From contig OY253682.1 in the NCBI GenBank assembly GCA_958009085.1, positions 868,001 to 932,000 on the forward strand: a stretch of 64,000 bases of DNA, read 5' to 3'. The translations under genes and the position numbers were made by a program. The notes under the pieces are model-generated. The model was not told the origin of the DNA. It did no database searches and was given only the letters and a program-made list of their open reading frames with translations. The number at the start of each line of letters is the position of its first letter. Position 1 is the first letter of the stretch. The DNA comes from Protoeuglena noctilucae (lineage: Eukaryota). Shown here piece by piece: positions 12,086-40,800 of the stretch.

Positions 12086-15000
12086 TCACCCCCCCCGCGC
12101 ACCCCTCCCCGGCGACACCGCCATCCCCACCCCAATCGCCGCCCCACCCCCCACCACCGCAACCCCACCCTCGCGCACCCCCCCATCCACACCCCCCTCC
12201 CACGCCACCCCCACCCCATACTCCGCCCAGCCCCCATACCCATCCCGCGCCCCCTCACCCGCACCCCCATTTGCCACATGCGACAGCAAGGGAGGGGCGA
12301 GTGCAGCCGATTGCAACGGCGATACTGGCGACGGCGCATTGCCCTCCCCGCCGTTGCCGCTCGTCCCATTGGCCGCTGCTACCCCCCCGCCCCTCGCCCC
12401 CCGCCGCCCCCCCCGTGTTCTGACACCGCCCTCTGGCGGCGTCAGGGGCGGCACTGGCACTGGCGCGGGCACCCTCCCCGCGAAACTGACGTCAGGGTGG
12501 TGGAACTTGCACATTTGCCCGAACTTGCAGTGTCCCGTGTCGATGTAGTGCTTGCACAGGGGCTCGGACGGTCGTAGGGGCAGGGAGAGGGCGTTGAGGT
12601 CGATGCCGAATTCGGGTGGGTGGTCGAAGTGGCACTTGGAGCCGTAGCGACTGCGATGGGTGGGGTGGGGAGAGATGGTGTGAGTGAGAGTGACAAGGTG
12701 AGGGTGTGAGTGAGAGAGGGTGTGGGTGAGGGTGTGAGTGAGTGAGAAGAGGGGTGAAAGAGACTAGGCGATCACACACAGTACAGCCCCACACCCCATG
12801 CGCACTCACCAGTACCCCACTCGTTTGAAGAAGTCACAAACCGCCGCCCCCTCCCTCCTCGGGAAGAGGTGACGGGTGCTGCGTGGAGCAGACGCACTGC
12901 CACCCACACCACCGCCCATACCCACACCCACACCCCCACCGCTACCCGCACCGCCATTCACGCCACTCCCCACGCTGCCCAGCTCCCCACCCTCCTCCCC
13001 ACTCCCCGTCTCCTCCCTTCCCGACCCACTCGCCCCCCCTTCCCTCCCCATTCCCACCCCATTCCCATTGCTGTGATCTGCCACCATACCCCCATCACTG
13101 TCGTCACCCGCACCCGTACCCGCCACACCCACACCGCTCCCCACATCCCCGTTGTTGCTCACAGTATAGCCGTAAGTAACGGGTGGTATTGCCGGCACAG
13201 ATGGGGACAGTGGCACTGTGCTTGTACCCATACCCATGCCAATAGCAGTGGCAGTGGCTGTGGTGGGCCAAGCGCGGCGGTGGGCGGGGAGGTGGGGTAC
13301 AGGTGGGAGTGTGGCTGGCCTGGGGAGGTCTTTGAGGGGAGAGGAGCCGTCGGGGAAGAAGGGAGCAAGGTGGGGGTCGTCGGAGAGATGCTGCGGGGGA
13401 TGGGGGGGTTGGGATTGGTAGGGGTGGGGTTTGGTTGGTGAGTGTAGGAGTGGGGGTGGCAGTGGGGGTGGTATTAAGGGTGGCAGTGACGACCATCTTC
13501 CCCTCGATCGCCATGTCGCAGCAGTGCATTATTTTAATGCATCTCTAGTACATTACTAGTACATTTACATACAGTATCTATATTAACACCACCCCACTCT
13601 TGTCTCACCTAGATGGCCATGTAGTAGCAGTGCATGTATACACACATATAAAACTTAGTATATTTACAACAATATCCATTTATACCACCTCACCTCGACG
13701 GCCATGTAGTAGCAGTGCATGAGCAGGGACGGGAACCTTTTCGTGAAATACGACAGGAACCCCTCCGGCAGACTCCCTATGGTGGCCTTGAGTGTTTCTG
13801 GCATCTCCTTGTAGTGGCTTGCCTTGTTGCGGATCACGCGGAGGAGGTCGCGCAGCAGGTAGCCGTTGTACACGCTGGGGGGGAGTGGGGTGGTGGGGGG
13901 GTTATTGGTCAACAGTTGTTGTCAATAGTAATGGTGATGGTGGTGGTGGTGGTATTTGTTATTGTAAGCATACATCCACATCAACCATCACCACAAAAAG
14001 TAACTATATAACACCATCATTTATTAAAAACACACAATCTCACCGGTACGTCCCCAGGTTGGCCACCAGCTCCGCATCCAAATGCGCCAGCCAGTCCCCG
14101 TCAGACATCCCATCCACAATAGCCATTACAACAAACCATACATAGTATAATTATAAACCATATATTCCCTCACCGGTACGTCCCCAGGTTGGCCACCAGC
14201 TCCCCGTCCAAATGCGCCAGCCAGTCCCCGTCATACAACGCCGGCGCCCCCCGCTCCAACGCAGCGACCAGGTTCGCGTCTCCCCCGTGCCTGTCCTCGT
14301 TTTCCAGCCGATTGGAGAGCTCGATGAGGAATCGGAGTCGCTTGTCGGGGTGCCACCATGCCGGGTGGTGGAGGGACGCAGAGAGGGGGGGGCGGTGGCG
14401 GGGGTCCTGTGTGGGGAGAAAGGGAAGATTGGTTCATTGTTGATAGTGATAAAGTGGAAATGACAATCATATATACGAGTTGAATGGTAATGTAAAGGGT
14501 GGTGGAGGGAGGCGGAGAGGGGGGGGCGGTGGCGGGGGTCCTGCTTGGGGGTGTAGGGAGTAGCAATGAAGAAACGGCGATTGATAATTGCTAACAAATG
14601 ATAAGTAATTATCCTGGACCATTTAACCGTCACGCAAACCACCCCACACACCCCACTCTCACCTGCTGAATCATGCACCCAATCAGGTGCCGCATCTCCG
14701 GCAGATGCCCCAGCGCCTTGAGACTGTGTCTGTCCAGCATGATGTTCTGATCCCTCTCATACTCTCCCCCAAACGGGTGTAACCCTCCCGTCAGCAAGTA
14801 GTGCAGCAGGCAGCCCATCGAAAAGACGTCCACAGCGCGCGTCATGCGGTGGGGGGCGCCTGAGAGGAGGGAGGATGGGGTGTTTATTAGTTGGAGAATA
14901 TGTATTATAGTATGTATATTGTTAAAATTAGTCATGGACTAGGCTCAGCTCGCACCCCATGCCCCAGTCCAATCAATCACACTCACACTCACACCCGCTC

Positions 15001-18000
15001 CCGTCCCCTGCAATCGCAATCAGCAACCTCCCAAACATTCCACCCACCCCAGCTTAAACATCTAAATCCACTCATATTCAAACTCACCCCCGCTCCCCAT
15101 CCCCTGAGACGAGTCCTCCCCAGACCCCCCCCCCGCCCCGCCCCCGCCCCCCTCCCTCCCCCGCAGCTGCTCCGGCGCTTGCCACCCCGACGACCCAGCC
15201 GGGGCCATCGTTTCAAAACTGGACTGATCGGGTACCAATTTGCGTGATAGACCCATGTCACTGATCTTGGCTTGCAAGCGGAAGGGCCGGGACGGGGCGG
15301 GAAGGGCGGGGGCGGCGGTGAGGAGCACGTTGCGGGGCTTGAGGTCGCGATGGACGATGTCGCGGTGATGCAGGGCCGCGGTGCCCTGGGAATGGGGGGA
15401 GATGGGGGGTGAGGGTGGGTGAGGGGTGGTGAGGGTGCCAGTGGGGGTGGCAGTGGTCCAAGCACGCAACACACACAAACACCATCCACATCAACACTCA
15501 TTCGTTATTCAAATCCGCTCCCACTCCTCGCCTGCATGACGTCCATGGCCAGCGCCATGCACAGTTGCGTGGGCGCCCGTGTGACTGGGTCCACCAGCGC
15601 TGCCCCCCCCTCGGGGCTGATCACGTAATCCCCCAGGTTGCTCTGGCATCGTTCCAGTGCCAGATACACGAAGGTGCTGTCCTCCTCCATGGCGAAGTAC
15701 CTCACGATGTTGGGGTGGTCGTCGCTGGTGGTCAGCGTGCGGACCTCCTTCTCGGCCATCTGAGAGGGGATATGATAAGGATGATTGAGATGAGCGATAT
15801 AAAGGATATGTGTAGTATTTACAATTTGTCATCCCTCGCCTGCACCAGCTGCCTCAGCACACGCACAGACATCAAAACTCATCCTGACAATGATAATAAC
15901 AATATTGATAATAACACCATCCCCTCTTCTCGCCTGCACCAGCTGCCTCAGCATGCTTACATGTCAACACAATAATGATAATAATAGTAATAGTAGCATC
16001 AATTGCATGTTCCTCGCCTGCACCAGCTGCCTCAGCATGCTTACATGTCAACACAATAATGATAATAATAGTAATAGTAGCATCAATTGCATGTTCCTCG
16101 CCTGCACCAGCTGCCTCAGCATGCTTACATGTCAACACAATAATGATAATAATAGTAATAGTAGCATCAATTGCATGTTCCTCGCCTGCACCAGCTGCCT
16201 CAGCATGCGCTTCACCGCCACCGCCCTCCCGTCCAGCATCCCCTCAAACACAATCGTGCCCTGGCCGCCGTACCCCAATATCTTGTCCGTGAGCACCTGG
16301 GGAGGGGGGAGCAGAGAGGTGTGAGTTATATGATATAAAATAGTAATAGTAATAGTAATAGTGATATTAATAGAAATAGCGATAGTAATAGTGATAGTGA
16401 TAGTGATAGTGATAGTAACAGTAATAGTCATAGTACTAGTATCATTACTCAACAAACATATATACAGGGATATTGTCACCTGCATCTTCCCCACGTGCGT
16501 GACCCCATCCACCGTGTAACTCCGCCCCTTCTCTTTCCCCTTATCGTTCTCCTTATCCCTCTCCCTCTCCATTAAATGTTCGGTGGGCGCTTGCGATGCC
16601 TCCCTCTCTCGCTCCTTTTCCTTTGCCAGCAATGCGGCGGTGGTGGCGCGCTCCAACTGTTAAGGGGTGGGGGAGGGGGTGAGGGGGTGAGTGGGTGAGT
16701 GGGTAAGTAGATATGAGATTGGGGTAGCAGATGGGGGCAGCAGTGAGAGTGGCGGGTGAGTGGTGTGTGACACAGTGGGTGGGTTAGGGTCCGTTACCCT
16801 CACTCGAGCAACAACCCCAGTCTCACTCAATAAAACACTCTTATCTACCAGTCACCCATTTCACCCCATATCTACCCTCACCTGCGCCATGGCCCTCCGC
16901 ATATTGCGCCTCACCAGTCAAACAACCCCAATCTCTCACTTACCCTATAACAACCAATAACAAACAAACCACCACCAACACTCCCCATATCTCTCACCTG
17001 CGCCATGGCCCTGCGCATGTTGCGCCTCATCCTCGCCAGCGCCGTCGCCATCATTGCAACCAGAACCACCAATCCCACATTCACCACAAACAGCGGACTG
17101 CCCCACCCCATCCCCACCCCCATATCCCCCCACTCCCACTCCCCGCCCCCTACCGCCCCCCACCCCCTCTGCCCCCCATTCCCGCCCGTCCCCCATCCCC
17201 CGTTGATCAGAGCGTTGGGGTTATTCGTGGGAATCAGTGGAATAATCGGGTTTATTCCGGTGTTGCCGGAAACGGGGCCGGGGAGGGCGGGGGTGCGGAG
17301 GTCGGCGTGGATGGCCGAGCGGAGGTCCAGGACGCTGCAATTGGGTAAGGAAGTGGATAATTAGATTAGAAAAGTAATAATCCCCCATCCCCCCCCCCCC
17401 CCCCGCCCCTCATCTCACCGCATGGGGCGGCTGAGGGCGTCCATCCCCACTCAGTTATCAACCACTCACCAGGGATTACCGATCATCAATAACTGTCCAT
17501 CAATAATTAACCATCACTCACCGCGTGGGGCAGCTGAGGGCGTCCATCCCCGCCCGGTCCATGCACACCGCAAGGTCCCTGGCATCCTTGTCCAATACCG
17601 CCACCACGCCGTCCCCAGGCGCGGGCAACGCGAGCGGGCCGCCCGTGTGAGACATCCCCACCAGATGCGAAGTGGGGAGGGCAAACCAACCGGAGGAACT
17701 GAGTTGGGGGGAGGGGGGGTGTATGTGAATGATGTAAGTGTTATTCCATATACCAGTGTTACTGCATATACTACAATAGAGTGTTTTATGTAACTATGTA
17801 CGTATCCGAATAGACACGCTCCAACATCGCTCAACCCCACACCCGCACGCTTTATGCTCCCCCACACACAACAACTCACACACTACCCCTCTCCCCCACC
17901 CAACCTCCCCACTCACCCCCCCGCCAGCCTCCCCACCACCACCATGTCCCTCCCCACCCCCTGCTGCCCCACCCCCACGCCCACCCCCCCGCCACTCCCA

Positions 18001-20054
18001 TACAACGACAGATGGGCGCGCAATGCCCTCGTTGTCGGGTCTCTGGAATACACCACGACTGGCGGCGCGGGGAGGGCAGCCCGCCACGCATGCCAGCCAT
18101 ATGTGGCGTCGACCAGGTGCATGGAGTGGTCGCTTGTGATCAGCAGTTGGCCGAGGCCGGATGAAGTGCGGATGTGGGGGTGGTAGGGGATGCTGGAAGC
18201 ATCGGACCAGGAGCCCAGGCCTCTGAGAGTAAGGGGGGAGGGGGTGGGGGGGTTGTTGTGTGGGGGGGGGGGAGTGGGGGTGGTGTTGAGGGTGGCAGTG
18301 GGGGTGGTGTTAAGGGTGGCAATGCGGGTGGCAGCCGGTCACACAGAATGCATATACCATCCGAATACACTCCATATACACTCTATTACTGTGCACAGTA
18401 TACTCCACTCACTTGCTGGGGTCCATGACCAGCATCTCCCCGTAGGTGACGTTCCACCTCTGTGCGCCTGTCAATGTGTCGACCGATTGCACGCGATACT
18501 CTGCCCTGCCCAGGAAGACGGGGTCCAGAGATGAGGCGTCCACGTCGGGGTGACCGTCGCCGTCTGTAATGGGGGGGGTGAGGGGGGGTGGCAGTGAGGG
18601 TGGCAGTGAGGGTGGGGGTGTGCTCACACATACCATGCCATCTCACATCACCCATCCATATCACCCTCTCACCGAAGTCGAGCATGTCTTGCCGGTCCAT
18701 CGCATCGAACGCCCCGCTCCCCGGCCCCTCAAACACCCGCAGCAACGTCCCCGACCGCCCGTCCAGCATGTAGATGGCGGCACGGCGCGATGCGGTGATC
18801 ACGGCGCCGTCATCGGTCATAGATGGAGAGGCGTCGACCAGGTCACGCACGGTGAGGGGGAGGCGGACCTGGGGGGGGTGAGGGGGTGAGGGGAAGTGTG
18901 GTGGTGGTGAGGGGGTGAGGGGTGGGGGTGGCAATGTGGGTAAGGGGGCAAGTGCAAAGTCAAGGCCACCTGCAGTCACTGACTGCGACAATTGCTGTAA
19001 AGGAAACACCCCAGCATGCGCCAATTTCTCCCACATGGCCATCACAAACAGTCACGCAACCGTATGCACCCCTACTCACCACAGCGGGCGACCCTTTGCT
19101 GCGCATCGTGGGCGTGGCATAGAAATACAGAGACCCGTCTGCGCCTGGGAAGACGCGGGGACCCTGGGCCTCGTCACCACCGTTACTGTTCCTGTCACCA
19201 TCGCCACCAGCACCAGTATCGCCCCCACTGCCGCTCGCATCGCTGTCGTCTCCTCGGGGCGCAGAGGGGGCCGCGGACGCCACGAGGGGCTCTCCGGAGG
19301 AGAAGGACCACAGACGGGTGCCTGTGCGGGGGGAAGGGAGAGGTCCGGGGATCGAATCCCACGTGCGTCGGATCGTACCGAGCACTGCCGGGCGCTGCGG
19401 CCATGATTTAGACACAAAGCGCCATCCCCGCCATCCCCGCTCGCCTGTGTTGGCGTCCAGGGACACGACGGTGCCGTCCAGCAGCCCCACGATGATCTGG
19501 GTCGTCGGGGAGTCGCCGTCCAACCCAGGAGCATCGGGGGGCAGCGGCTCCCGCCTCTCCGCGAAGCGGTGCGACGACGCCGTCTCGTAGAAGGAAGTGG
19601 CATAGGAGGGAGCTATCGGGACGTCATCCGATGCGTCGTCCGGGCCCACCCCGGCCGCGGCGCGGCCCACATCCACGACGTCGACCGCCTTGGGACTGGA
19701 CCGCGACCAGTCGACGCGCGCGCCGGACGCGTTCCCGGCCACTGGGGAAGCATCTTCAAGGACGCCGGTCCTGGACGACACCGACTCGAGGACTGCGGGC
19801 GCGAAAGCAAGCGGAGGGGTCCCGAAACACGCTCGCGCCCCCCTCTTCGCGGGCGCGGAGTGGGTGTCTCGGTCTCGCGCGACCGCCGCGGACTCTTTGT
19901 CAAGCAAGGAGAGCATGAGCAGGTTCGAAGGCCGCGACGGATGCAGGCGCGAGACGCGGGGGCCCATGAGGGAACGCGCGCCCCATGGCTCGCCCACTGC
20001 GCTGCGCGCGGGCCGCGTGCGCAGGACAGGCACACATCGCACTCTCGAGCGCAT
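12086..20054 (-). CDS. IRE1: IRE1 kinase/endoribonuclease with C-terminal tandem CCCH zinc fingers; start approximate
   Basis: Luminal domain (IVGLLDGTVVSLD, FPGADGSLY, LVDASPS, GRAEYRV), TM segment (~17040-17090), kinase (ILGYGGQGTIVFEG, HRDLKPRNVL, KISDMGLSRKL, GSSGWQAPEQL), KEN RNase (RDLLRVIRNKASHYKE), then two C-x8-C-x5-C-x3-H motifs. Confidence 0.92.
15929..16208. repeat. Intronic tandem repeat (~87 bp x3) containing the IRE1 exon end cctcgcctgcaccagctgcctcagcatgc
   Basis: Near-identical units are directly visible; partial copy at ~15833. Confidence 0.9.
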
Positions 20055-20504
20055 CGCAACGCGAACTCGCGTCGCAGGTCGGGTCCAGCAGAGGCTTCGC
20101 GAGCGCGGGCCCCCACCGTGAGCTTGACCGACGGAAGCCGGCCGGACCTCCTGGACCTTGACCATATCAGATTGACATCAAAGGCGCTGCCACCATGTGG
20201 CCCAAGGGCGCCCCGCGAGGGACCAGGAGAAACCTCGTTGCGGCAAAGGAGTCCGACGCGAATTTCGATGACAGGCCGCGACGATTTGATGCGTGCACCA
20301 TTCACCGGGTCCTGTGAAGTCGGCGAGGGACCGTGTGCTGCACAACTGGCTGTGTGTCCTGGGAGTCGTCCTGGGATCGCCGGCAGCGTCCCGGACGTCG
20401 GCAATTCCGTGTTTCTGCACCCCCTATAACCCCACGTCCCTGTCCTCTGCGTCACACGTAGCCATGGCGGGCGCAGTGCCCCGGACGGACCTGATCGAGG
20501 TCTC

Positions 20505-20522
20505 TTCTTCTTTCTTTTCTTT

Positions 20523-20558
<36 letters not shown>

Positions 20559-20559
20559 T
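20505..20559. repeat. (TTTC)n microsatellite flanked by direct repeats gaggtctc
   Basis: Directly visible; gaggtctc at 20497-20504 and 20575-20582. Confidence 0.9.
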
Positions 20560-20582
20560 AATGAGGTCTTTTATGAGGTCTC

Positions 20583-20790
20583 GGTCAGCAACCACAGGGC
20601 CCCAAAGGGCAGGAGTCCTACCCCCGTTCGCCCCAGAGCATGCGCTAAGCCTAACGGGCTAGGCTCGGCGCACAAATTCACCCGGTGCGCACCGGGCTTG
20701 GCCAAAGGCTGCATATCACAGGCAGCTTCCGATGCACCCCTCGGTGCCAGAGCGGGTGGCCCACCGCCTCACGAGACCACCCGCCCGCTA
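20583..20790 (-). ncRNA. Candidate Fanzor omega-RNA scaffold (cluster of hairpins)
   Basis: At least six stems in ~200 nt, ~315 nt downstream of the Fanzor stop; two stems pair fully (G:U) only on the minus strand. Confidence 0.45.
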
Positions 20791-20834
20791 AAACTGGGAT
20801 AGCTAAACTGGGAAAAACTGGGACTCTCCCCTGA

Positions 20835-23800
20835 CTAGCTTAACTGTACACGGTCGGCCGCGTCACTCCCTCCCGCGCCATCCCCGCCAACGCAGCCACA
20901 TGAAACCTGCGAGAGAAAGGGACACGCTTGATCTGTCACGGACCGAATCCAATGCACAGAGCAAGTTGACAGAGTAGGGAACGCGGGCCGCATGTCACGC
21001 ACACGCACGCACGCACGCACGCGCGGTCGGTCGCGGCCAAGCTCACCCGACCAACTCCCCGACCCCGCTGCCCGCCCAGGGCCTCCGCCCTCCCCCGGAG
21101 CGGGGTCAACCCGCTCCACCACCGCGCGGCCTCTTGCGCCTGGGCGCACCCACGGCCCCGCCCACCCCCTCGCCCCCACCACCCCCCTCGCCCCCGCCCC
21201 GCCCACCGCCCCCCTCTCCCCCGCCCCGGGCGCGTACCCGCCCACGGCGGCGGGCCCGCCCGCGGCCCGCCTCGCCGCCACCGCTCCCCTCGCTCCCGTC
21301 ATTCCCGCCCCCGCCGCCACCGCCACCGCCACCGCTGCCCCTACCGCCGCCCCCACCGCCCCCCTCGCCCCCCTCACCCCCGCCCCGCCCACGGCCCCGC
21401 CCCCGACCGCGCCCACGGCCCCGCCCAGCGCGTCCCTGCCTACCGCCGTCCCCGTCCCCGTCTCCGTCCCCGTCACTCCCGCCCCCGCCCCCACCCCCGC
21501 CCGCGAGTGCCTCGACCCGCTTCTCCACGTACTTGCGGTAGTTGTGCGCGATCATGACGGCCGCATTCCCGTCGCGCTCCACGAGGGCGCGATCTACGCC
21601 GACGGGCACCGTGATGCGGGAGTATCGGTAGCTCCCGTGCGCGTGGGCGAAGGGGCAGGTGAGCCACCGTCGCGCGTGGTACTGAATCTCCCCGTGAGCG
21701 AGAGGAGGGGCGTCCCCGAGGCCGAGGTCGGCCGCCGTCGTGGCGCGCATGCGTACGTCGACGCCGTCCACGTCCGGGTCTGGCGGGATGACGTGTCCAG
21801 TCGCGTTGAACTTGAGCGCGTCTCGGAAGCAGTAGTGTACTTGAGATGTGTAGCGCTCATCTTGCTGCGGGAAATAAGAACACCGCGTCAAGTGGGGATG
21901 GGTCGGGTCATGCGCGTCGACGCAAGCCGAGCCGGTGTTCAGCCCCACGCAGAGCGGCACAACGAGCACAGGATACGCAAGCAGCCACAGAGAAGACGCG
22001 CGACGCGACGTGGAGGGGGCCCCACCCACCAAGCCAAGGCGCGAGCGGAGCCGGCGCACTCACCCACACGCCCGTGACCCACGTGGGAGCGACGTTGATG
22101 CGGTGGGCCGCGAGGCGCCTCCTGCTGCACTCATTGTACAGCTCGCGGATGAGCGCCCACACGGCGCGCGTGTTGGGCATGGCCGGAACGCCGCGCACGT
22201 TGTTGCCGTACAAGGGGGCGTTGCCAAAGGCCACGATGACGTTGAAGTGGGGGAAGCGCTTGAAGATCCGAGGACGCCACATCTGCCCCGCGATGGAGCA
22301 GATGCGCCGGCCCCGAGCCATCTTCATGCGGGCCCCCGTCACGTCGCGATTGTAGATGGAGTCCGTCACCACGCAAGGCCTCTTGGGGCTCGTGTTGGGG
22401 TTGCCCGGCCCGCGGACGGCCATGTCGCGACAGTACCGCGCCAGCGTCACGCCGTAGCCCGGCCCGCGCCTCCACCCCGGCATGATGGTCTCGAAGCGCC
22501 CGAGGCGGACCGGGACGCCGGTGCCGACGTCGAACAAGAGGTACCGCTTGAGCTCTCGGAGCCACTTGTCGTAGACGGACCGGAGAGACCGGTGCATGTA
22601 GGACTTGCCGTCCACCTCCCAGATCTTTATGACCGGCTCGCCGTCGTCGTCGAAGTAGAGCACCACGGAGACCGTCACGATGCGCTTCTTACCGGGGTCC
22701 ACCCCGATGATGATCGTCAGCCGTCGATCCAGGACCACCTGTGGGAGGGGAAGAGGGGGAGGGTCGAGGGATTGAGGTGCAGTCCGGTCCCGGGCGGCCG
22801 GCAAGGAAGCACGGGGGGGCACGGCATGACAAGCACACGGCAAGCCCCATCTCATCACCGCAGCGGGCCGGCCAGGCGCGACCCGCCTCTCACCTCGTAC
22901 GAAGCGACGCCTTCGCCGGGCTGGGGGAGGGGGTCTGGCCGAAGTGGGTCGGCGCCGACCTATCAAGCGCCCGCCCCGTGCGTCGGTTCCGCGGGCTGCG
23001 GTTCCACGCGTTCGCGGGGGATCCCCTGGCGGCCTGGAGGTTGAGGCAGACTTTCACCCCATCTGTAGTGACTTGCGCGAGTCGCGGGGGAGGAGCCCAA
23101 GAATCGTCCGCGCCCTCCGGCCGGGGCGGGTCGAGGTGCTCGTAGCACCCCCCGCGGCCGGAGAGGGGGCGGCGTCGGTTGAAATTCCTCCCGGCGGCGC
23201 CGAGCTTCTCCGCGGCGCGCCGGCACTTGCGCCGCGTCGCGTTGGCGACCTTACGCATGTCCCGCGCCGACGCGCGGAACATGGCCTCGAAGCGGCAGCG
23301 CAGGACGTCCGTGGGGACCACCGAGGAGCCCTGGAACTCTTGATGGATGTACGGCTGCTTGCCCGGGGGCTGGGCCACGTTGCGGCGGGCCGTGAGGAGG
23401 CGGCACCGGGCGGACTCGAGGTTGGTCTCGGCCGCGCCGAGGATGGCGTCCGCCGCGTCCCCCAAGCGCCTCCGCGCGTCCGCCAACCGGTCCCCATGAC
23501 CGCCGGCGAACTGCAGCGTGCACGCCTGGCCCACGCGGTCGAGCCCGAAGTCGACGTGGCCCCTCGCGGTGTCCGCATGCTCGTGCGCGGCCGAGCGGCG
23601 CGGGAGGTCCCGCTGGTCTTCGTGGATGGCGCGTCGGACGTCCACTCCCACCCCGGCGAGGCGCTGGGCCCAGTCGCGCACGCGTTGCCACGTCCACTCC
23701 CCCGCGGGCACGGCGAGGAGCTCGGCCCGCGCCGCCTCCGCCGCGTCGACCAGGTCGTGCGCGCCGTCGTGTCGCGCGGCCACGATCGCCTCGCGCGAGA

Positions 23801-26800
23801 CGGCCTTGTCCCGCTGCCGCCGCAAGACCTTGGCGGCCGCGCAATTTGCCAAGTGGGCGAATACCTTAGGCGTGATGATCATATGACGACGCGACTCCGG
23901 AGGGTGCGGCAGGGCCGTGAAGCCCTTCTTCCTCCCGACGATGTCCATCTCGCGGGACCTCTCCACAGGCGCTGCGAGCGGGGGGGGAGGGGGAGGAAGG
24001 GTAATGCCCGACTCGACGCAAGTCGTGACCCGACGCCGGCAGGGGATGCACCTCCGCGAGGACGCGAGACTGACAGATGTCGACAGCAAGCGCGCGTATG
24101 GCATCGGGGCACATCCGGGCACGGGATGGGCGACGGCGTGCATGCAAGCGTGCGGCGCTCACCGAGCGTGACCCGGGCGAGCCCCCGCCCGCGCACGGTC
24201 CGCCAGTGCAGCATGTATAGATGCCAAAAGAACAGCTGCGGCGTGACCTGGCTCGGGTGGTACGGGACCCGCGAGTAGAAGCGATCCGCGGCGAGGCCCC
24301 CGCCGGGCGCGGTGACCATCGCGGCCCGCGTGGCCCTCGCTTGCCGGTAGACCCGGCGGAGCGCGGCCTCGACCGCCGCTCTCTCAGCCTGCGCGAGGGA
24401 CGCCAGGCGGCCCCGCAGGGTCTCGTGTAGACCGAGGACGTAGGCACCCGCATTGCCCGGGGGGGCCCATGGCGTCGCCCACTCCTCCCCCGCGGCGACC
24501 CAGCTCCAGAGGAGGGACTTGCTCATATCCGCCTTGTCCGTCACGCGCGGCGCCAGGCGTTGTCCGTTGGCGCCCACGTCGGGTGGCGTGAATCGTATCC
24601 CATCGTTGACGAGCTACGAGGGGTGGACGAGGGCGGCTCGGTTCTCGGGCTCGCACGTCGGCGGGTGGGAGGACGGACGATCGACCGGCAAGCCAAGCCA
24701 TCGCGCGACTCACCCTCGCGCCTGGGACGATGTCGCGGCAAAGGCCGAGGAGGTGTTGGCGGGCGCGGCGGACGAACGGCACCGTGACGTGGTGGACGAT
24801 GTTGAGGACGAGCTGGGAAGCCAGGGCCTGGAAGATCTCGCGCATCGCCCTCTCTGGAAAGACGAACGCGTCGTCGTCCCGCGCGCCCAAGATGGCCTCG
24901 ACTTGCCGGCGGTCGTTGCAAGCCGGCAAGGTCGCCGTGAAGCCCGCCGACCCTTGGATCTCGAGACGCGTATGCTTGCACACCGCGTGCTCGTTCTGCG
25001 GATCCGCCATCCCCCGGTAGGCCATGGACACCCAGAAGCGAGGGCCGGACGACCTCGAGAACATGTCGGCCACCGCCGTGGTCCACACGTAGCGCATGAA
25101 CACCGCCACGTTGTAGACGGGCATGCCGTCCTCGTTCCGCGGCACGTTGGGGTGATGCAGATAGACGTCGAACCGGTGGATGACCAACGCCGTCATCGTG
25201 CGCATTCCCAGCTTTCGCTGGTTCGTGCATACCGGCACGAGGCGGTCGACGGTCTCGACGAGGGCGCGGGCTTGGGGGTCCGACGCCATGTCGACCGTCT
25301 CTCGAAGGTGACGATGTGACGTGACGTAGTCCTCCGGGACCGGGGCGCCGGGCTCGTCGTCGTCCGACGGTGCCCCGGAGGACGGGTACCCCTTGCCGCC
25401 CTTGGGGGGCGGTGGAGGCGCGCCACCTCCGGGCGTCGCCCGACCACGCCCTCCGCGGCCGCCCCCGCCCCCACTCGACTTGGATTTCTGCGAGGGGGAA
25501 GCGGGGACGGGAAACGTTGGTGTATGTCAAGGGGGGCGATGGTAGGAGACGGTCCTCGTGGCCCAAAGGAACGCCGGCGCGCGAACTCGCCTTGGTCACG
25601 CCGCCTTTTCGCCCGCCCTTCTTCCCGCCCTTCTTCCCACGGCCACGCCCCTGGGCGCGCGTGCGCGCCCTCGCGCCGCCCTCGGCACCCGCAGCATGGA
25701 CCCGCCGGCGGCGAGCCCACCACGCCGCTATGGCACGCGCGGCCCGGACGACATCTTTGGCCACGGCCACGGCGAGCCGCCGCACCTGCGAGCGCGTGGG
25801 GTTGGGGAGGGCGGTCTTTATTCGGCGACGAGCTTGGGTCGGAGGGAGCGGCGGGCGAGCATTGCATCGCGTGCATGCCATCATTCCGCCGGCGCTTTCT
25901 CGCTCGCTCGCTCGCTCACCAGCCGGCAGAGCGACAGGACGCCACGGAGGAAGCCGCGCGGCCGGCGCCGGCGTCTCGCGCGCCAGTACCGCCGCCCGCA
26001 CCGCCATATCGCCTCGCGCACCCCGCGCGGACGCACGAGATCGTCGCCCGATTCGCCCACGGGGACGTCTTCCTCCACGCTCGTCGCCATGCACGCGTAC
26101 CCGGCTGCGTGGAGGGAAACGAGGCGATGGACGTGGGCGAGGGAGACTTGCGAGCTCGCGCGGTAAGCGTTCGCTACAGCGCTCACCTACTCCACCCGTG
26201 GCCAAGAGGGCGAAGCTTGCCGGGATTGTCTCGTCGACGTCGAAAGAAGGCCCCGCGGGCCTCCCCGTATCCCACGTGACGTGGAGCACGAGAGGCCCAT
26301 CCCTGCGCGAGAGGGAGGGGCGCGAGCTGTGCTGAATGCTGCTGCTTTCATTCGCATCACCATCGTCAATAAAGAAACCCAGATGCAGCGGGAGACGCGT
26401 ACGGCCTCACCGTCCGCCGCACGGGCGCATGTAGATGGAGCGCGCAGCGAGGACCACGGCCGCCACCGCCACCACGGCGAGGGCTGCACGCTTCAGGACA
26501 GACCATGCCGACAGGAGCACTGACCCGGCTCCCCACCCGCCATGGGTCTGCGGGCGTGAGGCGGGGGCGCGAGATTGCATGGAGCGTGCAAGCTCCCGCC
26601 GCATCATCCGGTGACCAACGGGCTGTTCAGAGGGAGTGTCCCTTATGCAAACAGTGCGGCAGGCGCAAGGGATAGGCCCGAGCGTCGATCCCGGCTTGCA
26701 CGAACCGACGTGGGTCCGTGGCGGGCAAATACGGCCGCGGAGCCTTACCTCCTCGACATCATGGCCCCGTGGCTCTGTGTTGGAGCCCTGTCCACGTGCC

Positions 26801-28113
26801 TCCTTGTGCTCCGCGCCGATGCGGACCTGCGGGCCTCGCGCGGGTGGCGGGTCCGAAACGCGCTACGATGCGACCCGCGTGGCGCGCCGGCCCGGCGTGC
26901 GCGCTCGCGATGCAGGCGGTTTTAAGCAGCGGGGATACTGTGTGAAGGACACGTGCGGCTCGAGAACGGCGCGCGAGAGCCCCTAGGAGGAGCGTGGGGT
27001 CCGGGGCCCCGAGACGTGACCATGTGTGCATCGCGGCGGGGCCGTCACGTGCGACCTGCCTCACCTCCGCTCGCACGGCGCTCGACGACGTCGTATTCCA
27101 GCGTGGCGGCTGGTGGCCTGCGCGGCGGCCACCGCTGCCGCGCGGCGACATGACCGGAGGGGCACACTCCGACCGCCCCGCGGCGCGGGGACGCGCGCGT
27201 TTGCGCAAGGCGCTGCGGAAGAAGAAGAAAGACGCTGAATAGGACAGCAAGCGCGAGCATGCTCGTCGAGAACGGCCCCGATACGCGCGAACGCACGCAG
27301 AAAGTCACTCCGTATTCCGGACCGTCGCGCGGGCGGGGGGAGCCATCCGGGAGGCGCCGGGACAGACGATTCGTTTTCAGCTGGCCAAATACACGTCCCG
27401 CTCACCTGAGGGGTGGCCTCGAGCCCCGAGGGGGAGGCGGTGCTCTTCGATGATCCCGAGGCAGGAAGGTCGAGGTCGGAGGCGGGAATGCCCGGGGACG
27501 CAGCCGCGAACCACAGCCATCCGAAGAAATGACAATCTTTTCCACGGATGGAGCCTCGCCGGCGGGCGGGTTTGACCCGGTCGTGTCCGTCCGACCGACT
27601 CGGAACGAGTCCGAGTTGTCCGGAGTTGTCGTGGACCTCCCTACCCCGGCCGGGGCCTGGAACGTCCCTCCGAAGGCCGGGCGTTGCGACGGTGGCCGTG
27701 GTCACCCGCCACACACGCGAAGCGGCGGGCGGCGGGCGACCGGGGGGAGCGACGAAGATCGCGAAGGGGCCGCGCGAGTGCTTTCCGGGCGGGACGGACA
27801 AACGGGGCGAGCCCCGACCCCACGCCGACGTGTGCCGGCAAGGTCGTGATGGGGCCCACGGGTCCACCCTACCCACCCCCACAGGGGCAGCTTCAAGCGG
27901 ATCCACGCGGCCGGAGAGGCGGGGGATCGCCTCGCCAATCACTCGCGCAGTCCGGCGCGGGCCTTCCGTCTAGCTTGCGCCCCGGGCGGGAGGGCGTGGC
28001 CTTCGACGACACGGTCGTCGGTGTGATGTACATGGCCGCCGCGGGGACCGGTGGAGGCGACCCCCGTCGAAGCGATTCGGCCGCGGAAGGCGTGTTTGAC
28101 TCGTGAGTCGTCG
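20835..28113 (-). mobile_element. Fanzor-carrying non-autonomous transposon, possibly Helitron-like; boundaries tentative
   Basis: CpG-rich island with a sharp GC drop at ~28113; minus-strand A|TC at 28113 next to palindrome gactcacgagtc; hairpin + CTAG|T at 20835; no transposase recognised. Confidence 0.45.
21106..27151 (-). CDS. Fanzor1 (TnpB-like RNA-guided endonuclease), 11 exons, ~1,510 aa, one unresolved phase junction
   Basis: RuvC-I IIIGVDPGKK (D at 22697-22699), VIVAFGNA, RuvC-II VWQDERYTSQV (spliced 22064/21864), RuvC-III ERDGNAAVMI (D at 21571-21573), VTTDGVKV, ASQLVLNIVHHVTVPFVRR and GFTALP..RHMIIT motifs. Exons: 27151-27065, 26826-26749, 26547-26411, 26302-26187, 26104-25920, 25785-25591, 25487-24714, 24613-24163, 23971-22894, 22738-22064, 21864-21106. 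Confidence 0.88.
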
Positions 28114-28888
28114 ATAATTTAGCGGGATTCCGGTAATGTATGCAAGTAACGCAAGTACGCAAGTAACGTGCATTGCTTCGTTGGCAAATGGAAAATTTTA
28201 CAGTGTGACACTTCACTAGCAACCAATACCATACGAAGCTATTTTGACATGACCTGGATACGATAAATGGGTTACTAAAATGCACATGTGGATTGTGAGC
28301 TACTGTTGTTGGATGTGTAAAAACATTATATAACATTATGTATTAAATTCTCTAACACATTTAGATACCAATTAAAATACTGTGGTGTTTAGTTGGTAAT
28401 GAATTGTTACATGACACCCGCCTGGGCGTGGTGATGCATTGACATGTCCCACTCATGGTGAAAAATTATGGAAAGACATGTCGATGTCTGCATCCGTGAC
28501 CTTCCACCTTCGCCAGGTGCTAGTCCAGCTGTAAATGTGAACGGCCTTATCAGCGTGGTGACCTGTCTTTCATTGCATTGCATTACCTTCAGCTAGCTAT
28601 AAGTGCCATATCGTGCTAGCCAAGGTACACCTTGCGGATGGTGAATTCTGATGTAACATGTTAAAGACGAACATGATTTAATATTTAATGTAATTTTTTG
28701 TAACAGGAGCAGTAAGATTTCCCAATAATTAATATTATGTCTAGTGTCTCAAGAAAGTGTCATCCGAAACTCTTGCAGACCCAAAAGTTCGCAATTGTTC
28801 TTAGCTTATTCTAGCCAAACCAAAAAAAAGAAAGCTAATTCCCTCATTTATTGCCACGTCGTAGGCGCCCGCGCCCGCGTTTGCGCTG

Positions 28889-30710
28889 ATGCGCTCGCGC
28901 GAGGGCTTCGCCATCATCGACGACACGCTTGTGGATCCGTACTATCCATCCTACGAGTCCTTCGATTGGAACGGCGAGTCAATCCTTGCCATCATTGATT
29001 GACGGGGGTTGCCTCACCACTCCCCCTCTCTCGCCCCCTTCCTCTGCATGTGGACATTGACAAGCCCAGTCACCCCCTCAACCCCCTGCCATTCTCGCAG
29101 GCATGCGAGTGGACATCGACCACACCAAGAACCGCGTCTTCTTCCCCATGTTCCGCCAGCGGTCGTATGTCGTGGCCAACACCACAACAAACACTGACAG
29201 CAAATCGAAAGCACCCACTTTCTACTCCGTGTCTGTCGCGCACCCGGAGCTGCCACTCAGGGCACGCAGCCGTGTCGAGGGCATCCGGGGGGACCGCGTG
29301 CGGTGCGGGTGGCAGTGAATGGGGTAGTTGGGGTGGTGTTGAGGGTGGCAGTGGGGGTGGTGTTAAGGGTGGCAGTGGGGGTGGGGGGTGGTCGGTGGGG
29401 GTGGTGTTAAGGGTGGCAGCGGGGGTGGCAGTGGGGGTAGCGATGTGAGAGTAAGGGTGAGAGTGCCCTCATGTCCCTGCCCCTTTCCAACCACAGTTGC
29501 TCCATGTTCTACGGATTCAAGACGCACAGCCGTGACGCCCTCCGCGCTTTGGCAAAGGGGACAGTGATCCAAGACGCAGCCGACAAGGCAAGCACCGAGT
29601 TCCTGTCATACCCATCATAACCTATGGTGGGCCTGTGTGTGGGTTGCGCTCGCTGTCGTGTGTGTGCTGCGTGCCACACCCCCTGCTGTGTATCTCACAA
29701 CACCCCCGTCGCTCTCACAGCACCCCCCCCCTGCCGTGCCCACCATTACCCATAACCCCCTGCCCCCCTCTCCCTGTCCCCCCAGGTCTACACCGGCATG
29801 GACTCTCTCCTCCCAAGCGCCGCTTCCCCTCAAACCGGCTGCTGGTTCGAATCCGTGATGGCCATGGATCTGAACGGCGTGTGGCGCGACCCGCCCCTGC
29901 TCTGCGGGCGCACCTACTTCCCCCTGTGGCTCCAGAATATGGCGAACTTGGACATCTGTTTCAAAGACATGCTGCAGCGCAACTACCTCAAGTTCATGGC
30001 CAGGCACCGGTGAGGAGAAAAAGAACTAGCCTACTTGGTAGAGTAGGCTAGTTCTTTTTCTACTAAGCATTTATCTGTCATCCATCCTTTAAGTATATCA
30101 TGTAAAGCAGATACCATACCTTATCTATCACCCATCCTCTTGTGATGCCCACGCAGGGACCTGCAGGGGGCAGACGTGGCCAAAGTATCGGCGTTTGTGG
30201 AAGCACGGCGCAAGCAGAGGCAGCTCAGCGTCCACGGCCGAACCTCCACCGCTGCGGTGAGGAGGGGGGTGGGTAAGAAACAAAGGGATGGGTTAGAAAC
30301 ATTAGACGCGCTTCATGTCACACATTGGCTTGTGCCCATACGCGCAACTAGTACTAGCTTGGTCTCATGTGTCACTCCCTATGCGTCACTCATTGTGCTC
30401 ATATCATGTGTGCATGGCTCCATATGCGTGCATTACCCCATATACACATGACCCCATTACCACACCTCCCCAGGTTGCTGCGCTGGCCGTCTTTGTCGTC
30501 ACATCTCTCACCCTCGCCGTTTCAAGCAACACAGCGCTGGCATCCACCCAAGGCCCCTCCTCCGCATTCCTCTACATCCTCGCCCTCATCGCGCCCCGCG
30601 GCTATGGCGGAGTGGCGTTCGTGCTGTTGGGGTATGCCCTATCGGTTGCGGCACAAGCGGGGGCAGTGGCGGCGGCAGCATATGGGGTGCTATGGGCCAT
30701 GGGGTACTGA
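28889..30710 (+). CDS. Hypothetical protein with C-terminal transmembrane helices, multi-exon
   Basis: Coherent exons (DPYYPSYESFDWNG|MRVDIDHTKNRVFFPMFRQRSY; GCWFESVMAMDLNGVWRDPPLLCGRTYFPLWLQN; hydrophobic last exon); family not recognised. Confidence 0.6.
30016..30061. repeat. Perfect 20-bp inverted repeat with 6-nt loop in an intron
   Basis: agaaaaagaactagcctact-tggtag-agtaggctagttctttttct. Confidence 0.9.
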
Positions 30711-37805: not shown

Positions 37806-40800
37806 TCAAAACACATAGATAGGATCTATCCTCGTTGTTGGCAGTAGTAGTGTAGAAGAATCTACCGATTGACGAACAGAAAGACCACGCGCTCTGCGAC
37901 ACGCACTGTAACAACGTGCTGCCCCTCTCTGCCCACCCCTCGCCCTGCTCCCATCCCCTCTTCCCACCCACCCCACCCCACTCTTCTCACCCATCTCCCT
38001 CATCCCCCACCCTATCCTCCCCCTCCACCCCCCTCACCCCACCCCCCCATCCCCCACCCCCTCGCCCCCCTCCACCCCACTTCCCGCCGACTGCAGCGCT
38101 CGCATCGCCTTCGTGCGCATGCTGGCGGAGCTGGCGACTTTGAGCAATTTCGAATTGGTGGCTTTGAGGATCTTCTGCACGCCCTTGCGTGCCAGTCCGG
38201 TGAGGTGGGCGGTGAGGGCCTGGTGTTGGCGGCTGGTCACACGCCTGGGAGTGAGGGTGAGAGGGAGTGGGTGAGTGGGGGTGGCAGTGGGGTGGCAGTG
38301 GGGGTGGTGTTGAGGGTGGCAGGGGGGGTGGTGTTAGGGGTGGCAGTGGGGGTGGGGGTGGGGGTGGCAGTGAGAAATATACACGCATACAAATCCATAA
38401 TCATATCCATCAACTTCTTACTCACCTGTATATCTCGTAGAAGTTTGCCTGCAGCACCGTGGCGGGCAGCGCGATGACCATCATGCCCGCAATGCACTGG
38501 AAACCACCGAAGATGCGGCCGGGGGCTGGGGGGAGGGAGTGGTGGTGTTGGCGTGAGAATGGGATAGCGAGCGATATAACAGCAACGCTACTTAAGCAGC
38601 CGCCCATCTTCTAAGAACCAATCAACAGAGTGTATCATGTACATATACCTTATACAATACAATACATAATATTTAATAAACACCCCATGTCTCACACCGT
38701 ACCGCGTTGATGTCCCCGAACACAATCGACACACCCATCTACACCCATACCTCCACATACACAACATACAATCATCGATACATATTTAGATATATTATAA
38801 ACATATCCCCATATACCTCACCCGTCACCGGGTTGATGTCCCCGAACCCCGTCGTCGTCATTGTCACGATCGACAGCCAGGCCGAGTGTGGGATCGATTG
38901 TAAAGGTGTCACTTCCGTATTCCTGGCACAGCCGGGCAGCGCATCGTAGTAGTTGGGGCATGTGAAGGTGGCTCCGTATCCCTGGTTAGGCACGTATCCC
39001 AGGTCAGTGGCGAAGGTGCAGCCGTGGACCAGGGCGGAGTAGACGGGGAAGGTGGACCAGTCTGGGGGTGGGAGAGAGGGGTGGAGGTGAGGTGGGGAGA
39101 AGGTGAGGGGGGAGAGAGAGAAGTGTCGCACTCTCACTGCCACTGCCACCATTAAAACCACCCCCACTGCCACCCTCAACACCACCCCCACTGCCACCCC
39201 CACTCATCCCCTCACCCGTCTGCTGGCTCTGGTACACGTTCACATCGCATGTGTAGTCCGTCTTGAGCAGCCACTCGTATAACAGCCCCGACATGTTGCC
39301 GTGTTCCCCGAACCACACCAGTGATCCGAAGAACACGATGGCCATGAGTAAGATGAGGAACAGGAGGTCTAGCACGGGGAGGGAGACGGTGACGGAGCGG
39401 AGGGTCACTGGGGGGGAGGTGGGGTGGGCGATGAGATGGAGGGTGACAAGGGGTGGTGGGCATTAAGCAGTCCCATCTCCCATCACCATTGCTACCTTCT
39501 ACCACAACCTCCCTTATCTTATCATCACTCTCCATTCTCTCATGTAACCCCCCTCACCTTGCAGGTGCTTCTGCGACAGCTTGAGCAGTCGCATGGCCCG
39601 GGTGAGCCTCAGCACTCGCACCATTTGCAGCCCAATGACGCGCTTGGTGACTGCTAAATCCACGAAATAGGGCACGACCGCCGCCAGGTCGATGTAGTTC
39701 ATGAAATCCTGGAAATAGTAGGCGACGGAGGGGCAGGACCAGAAGCGTAAAGCGATCTCGATTACGAATATCGCGATGCACGCCGACTCGATTGCAAAGA
39801 AGGGGGTGGTGGTGTCGGACTGAGGGGGAGGGAAGTGAGAGTTACTGATACTGAGTGAGTGAGTGAGTGAGTGAGTGAGTGAGTGAGTGAGTGAGTGGGG
39901 GTGGCGATGTTGCAGTGGGGTGGGGGTGGCGCTACACAGCTGAGTAAACGCATACCACCCCATGCATAGCAAATAGCATCCACCCCATCCAATGCATATC
40001 ACACTACTCCATTCACAGTACTAGCCACCACCCCAATTTATACCAGCCTCTCACCGTGGGCTTGTAGTAGAGCAGCGACGTCTCGGTGATGAAAGAGACG
40101 GTCGACAGCAGGATGGCGGTGGTGATGGTCAACCAGATGAGAGTGGCCAGCCAGGAGCTGGCGGGGTTGTTGAGAAGGTGCCAGACGCGGGACTGGGGGC
40201 CGCCCTGGGTGTGTATGGGAGAGAGAGAGAGCATGAAGGGTACGTATTGAATGCCACCCTTAACACCACCCCCACTGCCACCCTCACTCCCAGCCCCACT
40301 CGCAACCCCACTGCCACCCTCACTCCCACCCCCACCGCCACCCTCACCGGCAGCCGCGGCCCGCACGACCTCCAGTCGTATTCCATCGTCTTCGCCTCCT
40401 CCATGGCCTGCTTCGCCGTCCCGTCCACGCTAACGATCGAGAATCGGTCATCATCGTCGCCGTCCGCGTCCGTGCCGCCGTCGTCCTGGCTCGCGCGCAT
40501 CGATGCGACCCTGCGAATGAGAATATACATGATATTATCATTGATAACATGCGACTGCGGTGTCGCAAAGGATCTCCGTTAGGAGTGGAAAGGGCTGCGG
40601 GGCGCTGTGCATGTCCATGGGCTCGCTGCAGTCACGAACGCCGATGTGCACCATTACATCCGACTCGCCTTCGCCGCATCGCAGCCACGACGTCGAAGGC
40701 GGGGTCCGCGGGCTCCGGGACGGGCACGTAGGGGCCCGGGGGAGCGCCGCGGGACTTGGGGGGAGGCGACAGCGCCACCTGCGGGCGAATTCGCGACATT

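Follow-up and report, generated by a model that had tools for sequence, protein, structure and literature searches.

Does a gene whose product escapes the standard protein profiles still descend from an RNA-guided nuclease, and does it still encode one? This is the question raised by a minus-strand gene of Protoeuglena noctilucae between positions 21106 and 27151 of a 64,000-nucleotide (nt) stretch of contig OY253682.1 (positions 868,001 to 932,000; assembly GCA_958009085.1). We call that whole stretch, taken at its full length, the window, and all coordinates refer to it. An original prediction, made from the letters alone, had proposed a large, divergent algal Fanzor1, a member of the eukaryotic TnpB/OMEGA nucleases, spliced together from separate open reading frames (ORFs). 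We assign a probability of roughly 0.6 to a different outcome, namely, that the gene is a transcribed relic of a Fanzor1, very divergent and intron-bearing, that has been recently inactivated or is decaying. A relic is more likely than a working enzyme because the reading frame is broken in the mRNA itself and the zinc-binding part has decayed. Public runs of a single organism contain the stretch, as do metagenomes and metatranscriptomes from the sea.

Three RNA runs (X8, X9, and X10, of which X8 and X10 are two samples from one study) and one DNA run (X5) were compared with positions 20000-28500. RNA contigs of X8 and X10 skip four introns, whereas a DNA contig of X5 is colinear with the genome over 21511-25890, with zero differences and the introns retained; the introns are therefore real and are removed at the RNA level. 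No substitution or indel within the gene was reported in any of the four runs (three RNA, one DNA). Exons D to H (Table 1) have a clear coding signature, with GC content at third codon positions (GC3) of 0.82-0.93 versus 0.46-0.57 at second positions (GC2); exons were not ranked by contig depth. In the sea, natural populations transcribe and splice the gene. The splicing at consensus sites that had been predicted is thus borne out for four GT..AG introns, including the joint at 21864/22064 (splice joints are written with a slash) through which transcripts of X8 and X10 connect the GVDPG and DERYTS exons, while the exons placed further upstream have no junction support. All five motifs named in the prediction were found on the minus strand, in four raw ORFs. 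One claim did not hold: the RuvC-II motif had been said to form only across an intron, but QDERYTSQ is the first eight codons of the last exon and is visible in the unspliced ORF. What forms across intron 4 is only the preceding strand (VTGVW/QDE) and the link of QDERYTSQ to VAFGNA. As to the splice sites themselves, GTGAG occurs at four of four RNA-confirmed donors and at four further candidate donors, TCGCAG occurs at four of the seven acceptors of the gene, and one probable donor is GC (AAG/GCGAGT at 25590). A further joint, 23744/25450 (side 21), and loose contig ends at 23721, 23744, 25438, and 25470 fall in GC-rich low-complexity sequence and were read as other sequences. Introner-type repeats were considered as a source of the introns and rejected, the sole cross-match being a 31-nt polypyrimidine stretch.

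Joined as the RNA joins them, the confirmed exons give two long ORFs instead of one. Exons D, E, and F are mutually in phase; F ends with two spare bases and G begins on a codon boundary. The N-terminal frame goes 7 codons beyond the F/G junction to a TGA at 22717-22719 and would span ~896 codons if started at the ATG at 26090. Upstream, TGA TAG (22960-22965) closes the RuvC frame, which then stays open for 499 codons between 22959 and its stop at 21106-21108. Moving between the two frames would take a -1 shift within a ~90-nt overlap of the mRNA, so that the nuclease has no continuous single ORF; this break is the one lesion visible at the locus. Because the F/G junction is both out of phase and RNA confirmed, it is the mRNA that switches frame, between TDGV and GVDPG, and ordinary translation of this mRNA cannot yield the joined enzyme. 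Two C5 runs in the overlap window are a likely place for a one-base indel. The original prediction had counted nine of ten junctions as phase-consistent in a protein of ~1,510 amino acids (aa). A 10-exon chain of ~1,510 codons from an ATG at 27151 can indeed be rebuilt from splice-like sites, and eight of its nine junctions are in phase; however, the one that is off is the RNA-confirmed F/G junction and not a modeling slip, and no intact protein follows from a frame-broken mRNA.

The break might nevertheless be bypassed. In that case, the gene would encode an intact, active giant Fanzor1 of ~1,370-1,510 aa, through either programmed -1 frameshifting or an undetected in-frame isoform. It is general knowledge that bacterial insertion sequence (IS) elements often have frameshift-fused ORFs, and several properties of the gene would suit such a product: the catalytic Asp, Glu, and Asp are kept on invariant columns of the family, the RuvC ORF is open throughout with coding-type GC3, the profile alignment described below continues over the break, and transcripts are both made and spliced. 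However, the ~90-nt overlap holds no slippery heptamer of the form X XXY YYZ, no alternative canonical GT/AG pair near the F/G junction restores the frame on a reading of the sequence, and only one form of the junction appears in the two RNA runs that cover it. The zinc ribbon is also degenerate, and even an intact relative, the algal, intron-bearing Fanzor1c CrFNuc, did not cleave in vitro in the available text of Jiang 2023. We therefore consider an intact enzyme quite unlikely and return to the reading as a relic, for which the kinship of the gene has to be established.

Comparators were obtained by scanning IMG/VR with a back-translated RD.NAA.NI motif, and 67 of the 115 matches lay in ORFs of at least 300 aa with the motif near the C terminus. 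The ORF L064:2507-4255 (583 aa) matches PF07282 at an E value of 4.7e-9 and has the full motif set (TDGV, IDPG, AYGAA, VDE..TT..C, and RD.NAA); its family numbers 159 members at an E value of ≤0.001. From this query and 120 listed of the 159 matches, we built an alignment of 68 sequences, termed A1. One member has an informative source name, Marseillevirus LCMAC101 “putative transposase DNA-binding domain protein.” The AlphaFold model of A1 (predicted local distance difference test [pLDDT] of 90.8) superposes over its full length on SpuFz1, PpFz1, and GtFz1 (template modeling [TM] score, 0.64-0.73; E values, 5e-21 to 4e-17) but reaches a TM score of only ~0.25 with Fanzor2, TnpB, and Cas12f. 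Judged by this model, the virus-borne family A1 is therefore a Fanzor1 family. Some features of the viral sequences are observations in their own right. An N-terminal SAP DNA-binding domain occurs in A1 members P0051, P0055, P0057, P0063, P0068, and P0081, and P0117 has DUF5763. Among the 67 TnpB-like viral ORFs, 10 (IMG/VR loci L008, L012, L018, L030, L040, L049, L053, L059, L068, and L078) have a rearranged-Glu motif, (D/N/S)E.(Y/F/W)(T/S)(T/S)..C, immediately ahead of the zinc ribbon, and two distinct TnpB-like ORFs of 383 and 400 aa (L025 and L026) lie ~5 kb apart on one 14.6-kb viral contig.

The spliced protein resembles A1 in several comparisons. Against A1, the ORFs of exons F, H, and G come 1st, 7th, and 11th among the 688 window ORFs of ≥60 aa, at collinear profile positions. 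With hhalign, the top match of each exon fell on the expected block (TDGV for F, P = 0.0066; IDPG for G, P = 0.0079; RD.NAA for H, P = 0.021), and an hmmsearch of A1 against the joined F-G-H sequence gave an E value of 2e-4 (one target), with an alignment that runs from TDGV to GVDPG across the frame break. Alignment with hmmalign was confined to the first two blocks, where it recovered 7 of the 69 conserved columns, compared to at most 4 in 300 shuffles; because of this confinement, an ordered block-chain test was written, using ten ordered position-specific scoring matrices of blocks from the conserved columns of A1. The chain places six blocks in order across exons F, G, and H with 53.5 bits. 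Shuffled sequences (2,000 and 20,000) gave a mean of 4.2 bits with a standard deviation of ~3.6 and never exceeded 26.8. When neighboring window ORFs were concatenated (682 cases), the eight best all contained F/G/H exons and the best unrelated one scored 15.4 bits. The gene thus lies ~14 standard deviations over the shuffles and at 3.5 times the best unrelated natural control, with a P value of ~1.6e-8 by a rough Gumbel extrapolation. Among the 13 invariant columns of A1, 7 are matched (D312, D345, G347, G469, E503, R544, and D545). Of the six, SVYDK is the block placed with least certainty, as its spacing is unlike that in A1. The N-terminal 889 residues align to A1 only at TDGV, the ~830 residues upstream of it having no relation to A1 or to other families found; a REC-helix look-alike at residues 343-373 (P = 0.62) was dropped.

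These numbers bear on whether the gene is simply an unrelated host protein in which short motifs resemble those of Fanzor/TnpB by chance. Such a view could draw on the uniformly negative curated profile and sequence searches, on the low hhalign probabilities of exons F, G, and H (2 to 6% each), and on a selection effect, since it was these motifs that drew the earlier reader's eye. Six family blocks in the right order on three RNA-joined exons, the distance of the chain score from both kinds of control, and the ranks of the three ORFs are nevertheless hard to reconcile with it, and we regard it as very improbable. As far as sequence statistics can tell, the motifs taken together cannot be a product of chance.

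Element by element, the spliced sequence follows what has been published for Fanzors. Preceding RuvC, the WED hairpin block matches T311, D312, and G313 of A1, although its linker to RuvC-I is ~68 residues, compared to 33 in L064. For RuvC-I, the D of GVDPG falls on invariant D345 and the following G on invariant G347. For RuvC-II, the G of VAFGNA corresponds to invariant G469, the E of DERYTSQ to invariant E503, and its T to T506, the relocated Glu lying 56 residues downstream of the inert Gly. For RuvC-III, RDGNAA provides invariant R544 and D545, in a block scoring 13.1 bits. Jiang 2023 describes Fanzors as having an inert Gly or Pro at the old RuvC-II Glu position and the essential Glu ~45 residues downstream, before [TS][TS]; Xu 2024 places this Glu on a loop after strand 5, ahead of the TNB domain; and Saito 2023 names the metal ligands of SpuFz1 (all three in the parts available). 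The relocation of the catalytic Glu to DExxTS and the retention of the Asp, Glu, and Asp triad, both part of the original prediction, hold up on the columns of A1. The motif D-X(125,275)-[TS][TS]-X-X-C4-X(5,50)-RD, given as strictly conserved in the available text of Bao & Jurka 2013, is likewise satisfied save for the C4 finger, the distance from Asp to Thr-Ser being 216 residues in the spliced sequence. Because the motif architecture agrees with the published descriptions and the blocks match A1, the kinship of the gene with Fanzor1 is, as a matter of sequence, well supported.

Several results weigh against this assignment. No C4 zinc ribbon or TNB domain (PF07282) was matched between [TS][TS] and RD at E values up to 10, and the zinc-ribbon block scores -4.5 bits, with none of five near-invariant columns placed; the stretch from Glu to Asp has 95 residues and two Cys, compared to 42 residues and four Cys in L064. 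Searches of the raw ORFs and exact exons with Pfam, NCBIfam, and PHROGs returned no relevant family at E values up to 10, so that the Fanzor/TnpB profile match proposed as a check on the prediction did not appear; the OrfB_IS605 and Cas12f1-like TNB profiles of Pfam matched no exon. A PDB sequence search with the two RuvC ORFs gave nothing relevant, and phmmer with exon G against 1.84 billion representatives gave a single match, the ORF of the locus itself. A hidden Markov model (HMM) built from the 67 viral TnpB-like ORFs reached an E value of 0.078 (hhalign probability, 1.6%) against spliced G+H, and that from the 10-member rearranged-Glu subset reached a nonsignificant 0.032. Four A1 blocks, with the four invariant columns Y374, D452, F454, and P484, are unplaced, and C513 is off by one; the block boundaries were set after viewing both sequences, though they follow A1 columns conserved at ≥90%. 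The single-sequence AlphaFold model of exon G alone has a pLDDT of 32. Against the reading as a relic, the RuvC ORF is open over its 499 codons at a GC3 of 0.82-0.93, all three catalytic residues are present, and spliced transcripts are made, so the break may be very recent or bypassed. Of the divergent, large algal Fanzor originally proposed, Fanzor1 kinship stands, whereas an intact nuclease does not, the zinc ribbon being unmatched and the 5' third unsupported. Searches with single exons were similarly bare: exon G had no homologues other than its own ORF, P0001, among 5.8 billion clusters, and exon H gave no lead in ESM Atlas. An ESM Atlas lead for exon G at 0.88, in clusters with 15 to 18% Terminase_6C members, fell below the 0.9 line and was not used.

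The surroundings of the gene resemble those of a host gene. No second copy of any exon was found in the window or in the protein and contig collections searched, no inverted repeats stand out around the gene in the window, none of the 113 window ORFs scanned has a transposase domain, and no related loci were found in metagenome and viral contigs. The broken frame and the missing ribbon, combined with the failure to find a second copy, inverted repeats, or a transposase, leave an intact enzyme unsupported. Neighboring ORFs (4211-63998) carry host-type domains, namely, PEN-2, GYF, CCCH zinc finger, rhodanese, MIF4G+MA3, peptidase S41, protein kinase, and helicase C, with an ABA4-like domain below the cutoff. 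GC content of the gene region is ~70%. Lower-GC islands (0.54-0.57) occur at 14001-18000, 28001-30000, and 38001-40000, compared to 0.65-0.71 in the stretches between them, and a G-rich tandem array of seven copies with a 12/24-nt period lies at 29303-29453, upstream of the gene region.

In such a setting, one or both halves of the gene could have been taken over by the host. A domesticated derivative would use either the ~896-aa N-terminal product, which would be REC/WED-like and have no nuclease, or a RuvC-only product started in intron 3, by analogy with bacterial TnpB derivatives that are nuclease-dead. In spliced RNA, the RuvC frame has its first ATG downstream of the RuvC-I Asp, but an ATG near 22851, within intron 3, shares the frame of exon G. 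The sole database entry of the locus, P0001 (315 aa), is an unspliced genomic ORF that starts at this ATG, and an RNA-library contig of X9 (22764-23150) runs through intron 3 unspliced; however, X9 covers introns generally and so may hold DNA or pre-mRNA. Several introns, expression in environmental samples, host-type neighbors, the lack of a second copy, and basic stretches at both ends that may act as nuclear localization signals (NLS) would all fit domestication. Conversely, no orthologue or paralogue that could show purifying selection was found in the collections searched, the N-terminal 830 residues are without any match, and, as is generally known, a premature stop followed by two downstream junctions normally marks an mRNA for decay. 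We consider domestication unlikely. Its furthest-reaching form, a ribbon-less host-domesticated descendant of about twice the usual size, with its halves recoded from one mRNA or used separately, is improbable. In the latter case, the separate products would be an N-terminal nucleic-acid-binding protein and a RuvC module started in intron 3; either way, the gene, if the reading were true, would be a eukaryotic counterpart of the domesticated bacterial TnpB derivatives, in a lineage invisible to standard profiles.

For the relic, the ends of the gene can be drawn with differing confidence (Table 1). At the 5' side, contig 16 of X8 starts exactly at 25785, behind an acceptor, and contig 15 of X8 stops 2 nt beyond the exon D start. 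The ATG at 26090 is the first following an in-frame stop, and GC content by codon position in the candidate exon that it opens is 0.77/0.61/0.88. In the three rebuilt upstream exons, GC3 exceeds GC2 by 0.02-0.18, compared to ~0.30-0.45 in the confirmed exons, and coding periodicity is not clear upstream of ~26350. No junctions were seen upstream of 25785, where X8 and X10 have no cover over 25964-27667, so this is not evidence against exons; X9 is colinear over 25964-27667, introns included. At the 3' side, RNA was evaluated as a possible guide RNA over 20568-20906, where the fold z-scores of the RNA are -1.9 (minus strand) and -1.3 (plus strand). This candidate was set aside: since the RNA begins exactly behind an acceptor site and folds with a z-score of just -1.9, an exon of the 3' untranslated region (UTR) is the simpler reading. 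No Rfam match was found over 19000-29000, and no guide RNA was identified near the gene, although recognizing one would take copies or small-RNA data. An (AAAG)n/(AAGA)n microsatellite (20500-20567) directly follows the probable 3' UTR exon. In the tail of exon H, ~135 codons rich in Gly, Arg, and Asp derive from 9-nt-periodic C/G-rich repeats, and metagenome DNA contigs break within it (loose ends at 21260, 21383, and 21423).

Table 1. Features of the Fanzor1-like gene, with positions in the window (splice joints and sites marked by a slash).
Feature	Positions	Strand	Remarks
Upstream exons of the original prediction, rebuilt	27151-27065, 26622-26411, 26302-26187 (joining at 26104)	-	Phase-consistent; without junction support
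Candidate first coding exon	25920-26090	-	ATG 26090; 57 codons; donor GTGAGC; phase-consistent with exon 2
Probable exon 2	25591-25785	-	Predicted; 65 codons, basic, Gly/Lys-rich; acceptor cgctcgcag/; GC donor AAG/GCGAGT; in phase with D
Exon D	25487-24714	-	258 codons; RNA contigs; family unrecognized
Intron 1	24614-24713	-	100 nt; GT..AG; joint in X8, X10
Exon E	24613-24163	-	451 nt; RNA contigs
Intron 2	23972-24162	-	191 nt; GT..AG; joint in X8, X10
Exon F	23971-22894	-	1078 nt; RNA contigs; TDGV is the WED-type strand preceding RuvC in Fanzor1
TDGV	23055-23066	-	Raw ORF, exon F
Frame-break window	22717-22965	-	Spliced sequence; F/G junction 22894/22738 RNA confirmed
Intron 3, out of phase	22739-22893	-	155 nt; GT..AG; joint 22735/22891 (cut +3) in X8, X10
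Exon G	22738-22064	-	225 codons; RNA contigs; GC3 0.93 vs GC2 0.48
GVDPG	22691-22705	-	Raw ORF, exon G; RuvC-I Asp
SVYDKW	22562-22579	-	Exon G
VAFGNA	22217-22234	-	Exon G; Gly at canonical RuvC-II Glu position
Intron 4	21865-22063	-	199 nt; GT..AG; joint in X8, X10
Exon H, last coding	21864-21106	-	RNA joint 21864/22064; stop TGA 21106-21108
QDERYTSQ	21841-21864	-	Exon H; relocated RuvC-II Glu
HYC	21829-21837	-	Exon H
CPFAHAH	21637-21657	-	Exon H
RDGNAA	21559-21576	-	Exon H; RuvC-III Asp
Gly/Arg-rich low-complexity tail	21109-21519	-	Exon H
PRRKRPR	21124-21144	-	End of exon H tail; putatively NLS-like
Probable 3' UTR intron	20907-21046	-	140 nt; GTGAGC...CAG; weak: 13 of 15 extra letters of X8 contig 13 upstream of 20907 match 21048-21060
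Probable terminal 3' UTR exon	20568-20906	-	RNA contigs of X8, X9, X10 over 20568-20907; acceptor ctctcgcag/ upstream

Compared with known systems, the gene has the same order of elements as the solved Fanzor1 proteins (SpuFz1, 8GKH and 9CEU; GtFz1, 9CER; PpFz1, 9CF0/1), with A1 as the bridging family: the WED hairpin comes first, followed by the RuvC-I Asp, an inert residue, the relocated Glu after strand 5, and the helix bearing the RuvC-III Asp. It differs from them in its length if joined (most Fz1 proteins have 600-700 aa in the available text of Xu 2024), in its broken frame, in having no recognizable C4 zinc ribbon, and in giving no sequence-level match to them in PDB. Insertions into RuvC are known in Fanzor1, such as the ~100-aa FRI domain of PpFz1 described in the same part of Xu 2024. 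With A1, the gene has the blocks TDGV(S/K)VC, (I/V)DPG, SVYDK, (Y/F)G(A/N)A, DE..T(T/S), and RD.NAA in common. The A1 proteins, in contrast, are ~550-770 aa long, intron-free on viral contigs, and provided with PF07282, whereas the gene here is longer by ~56 residues from Asp to Glu and by ~53 from Glu to Asp and lacks the ribbon cysteines. CrFNuc, from Chlamydomonas reinhardtii and compared by description, is an algal Fanzor1 with introns, as here, and the available text of Jiang 2023 reports that Fanzors gained introns and nuclear localization signals. It also reports six copies of CrFNuc, all in Helitron-2, with a conserved 3' noncoding RNA, whereas neither a second copy nor a transposon context was found for the present gene in the window and the collections searched. 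Rearranged-Glu TnpB proteins, including TvTnpB, have the relocated Glu in common with it, as far as available descriptions go, and (V/Q)DER(Y/F/W)T(S/T)Q is as in the 10 viral rearranged-Glu ORFs. TnpB, unlike the gene here, is without the TDGV block and the large N-terminal part.

We propose that this is a nuclear gene derived from a Fanzor1 nuclease of the TnpB/OMEGA lineage that has acquired at least four spliceosomal introns while keeping the element order of the family, from the WED-type TDGV through the RuvC-I Asp, the Gly, and the relocated Glu after strand 5 to the RuvC-III Asp/NAA helix. By analogy with the family, in a working enzyme these elements would form a single RuvC site cutting DNA picked by a guide RNA, which would be encoded close to the gene's 3' end. 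In the present copy, a longer stretch containing just two Cys takes the place of the zinc ribbon (TNB).

Fanzor surveys begin with profile searches, and this locus escapes Pfam, NCBIfam, PHROGs, and phmmer. It has nevertheless kept the Fanzor1 catalytic architecture, with real introns and expression in the sea, which suggests that very divergent lineages embedded in hosts are undercounted in catalogues of eukaryotic RNA-guided nucleases. Because its frame is broken and its zinc ribbon lost, this copy makes a poor candidate for editing; it is nevertheless useful for understanding how Fanzor genes decay or get co-opted after leaving the transposon.

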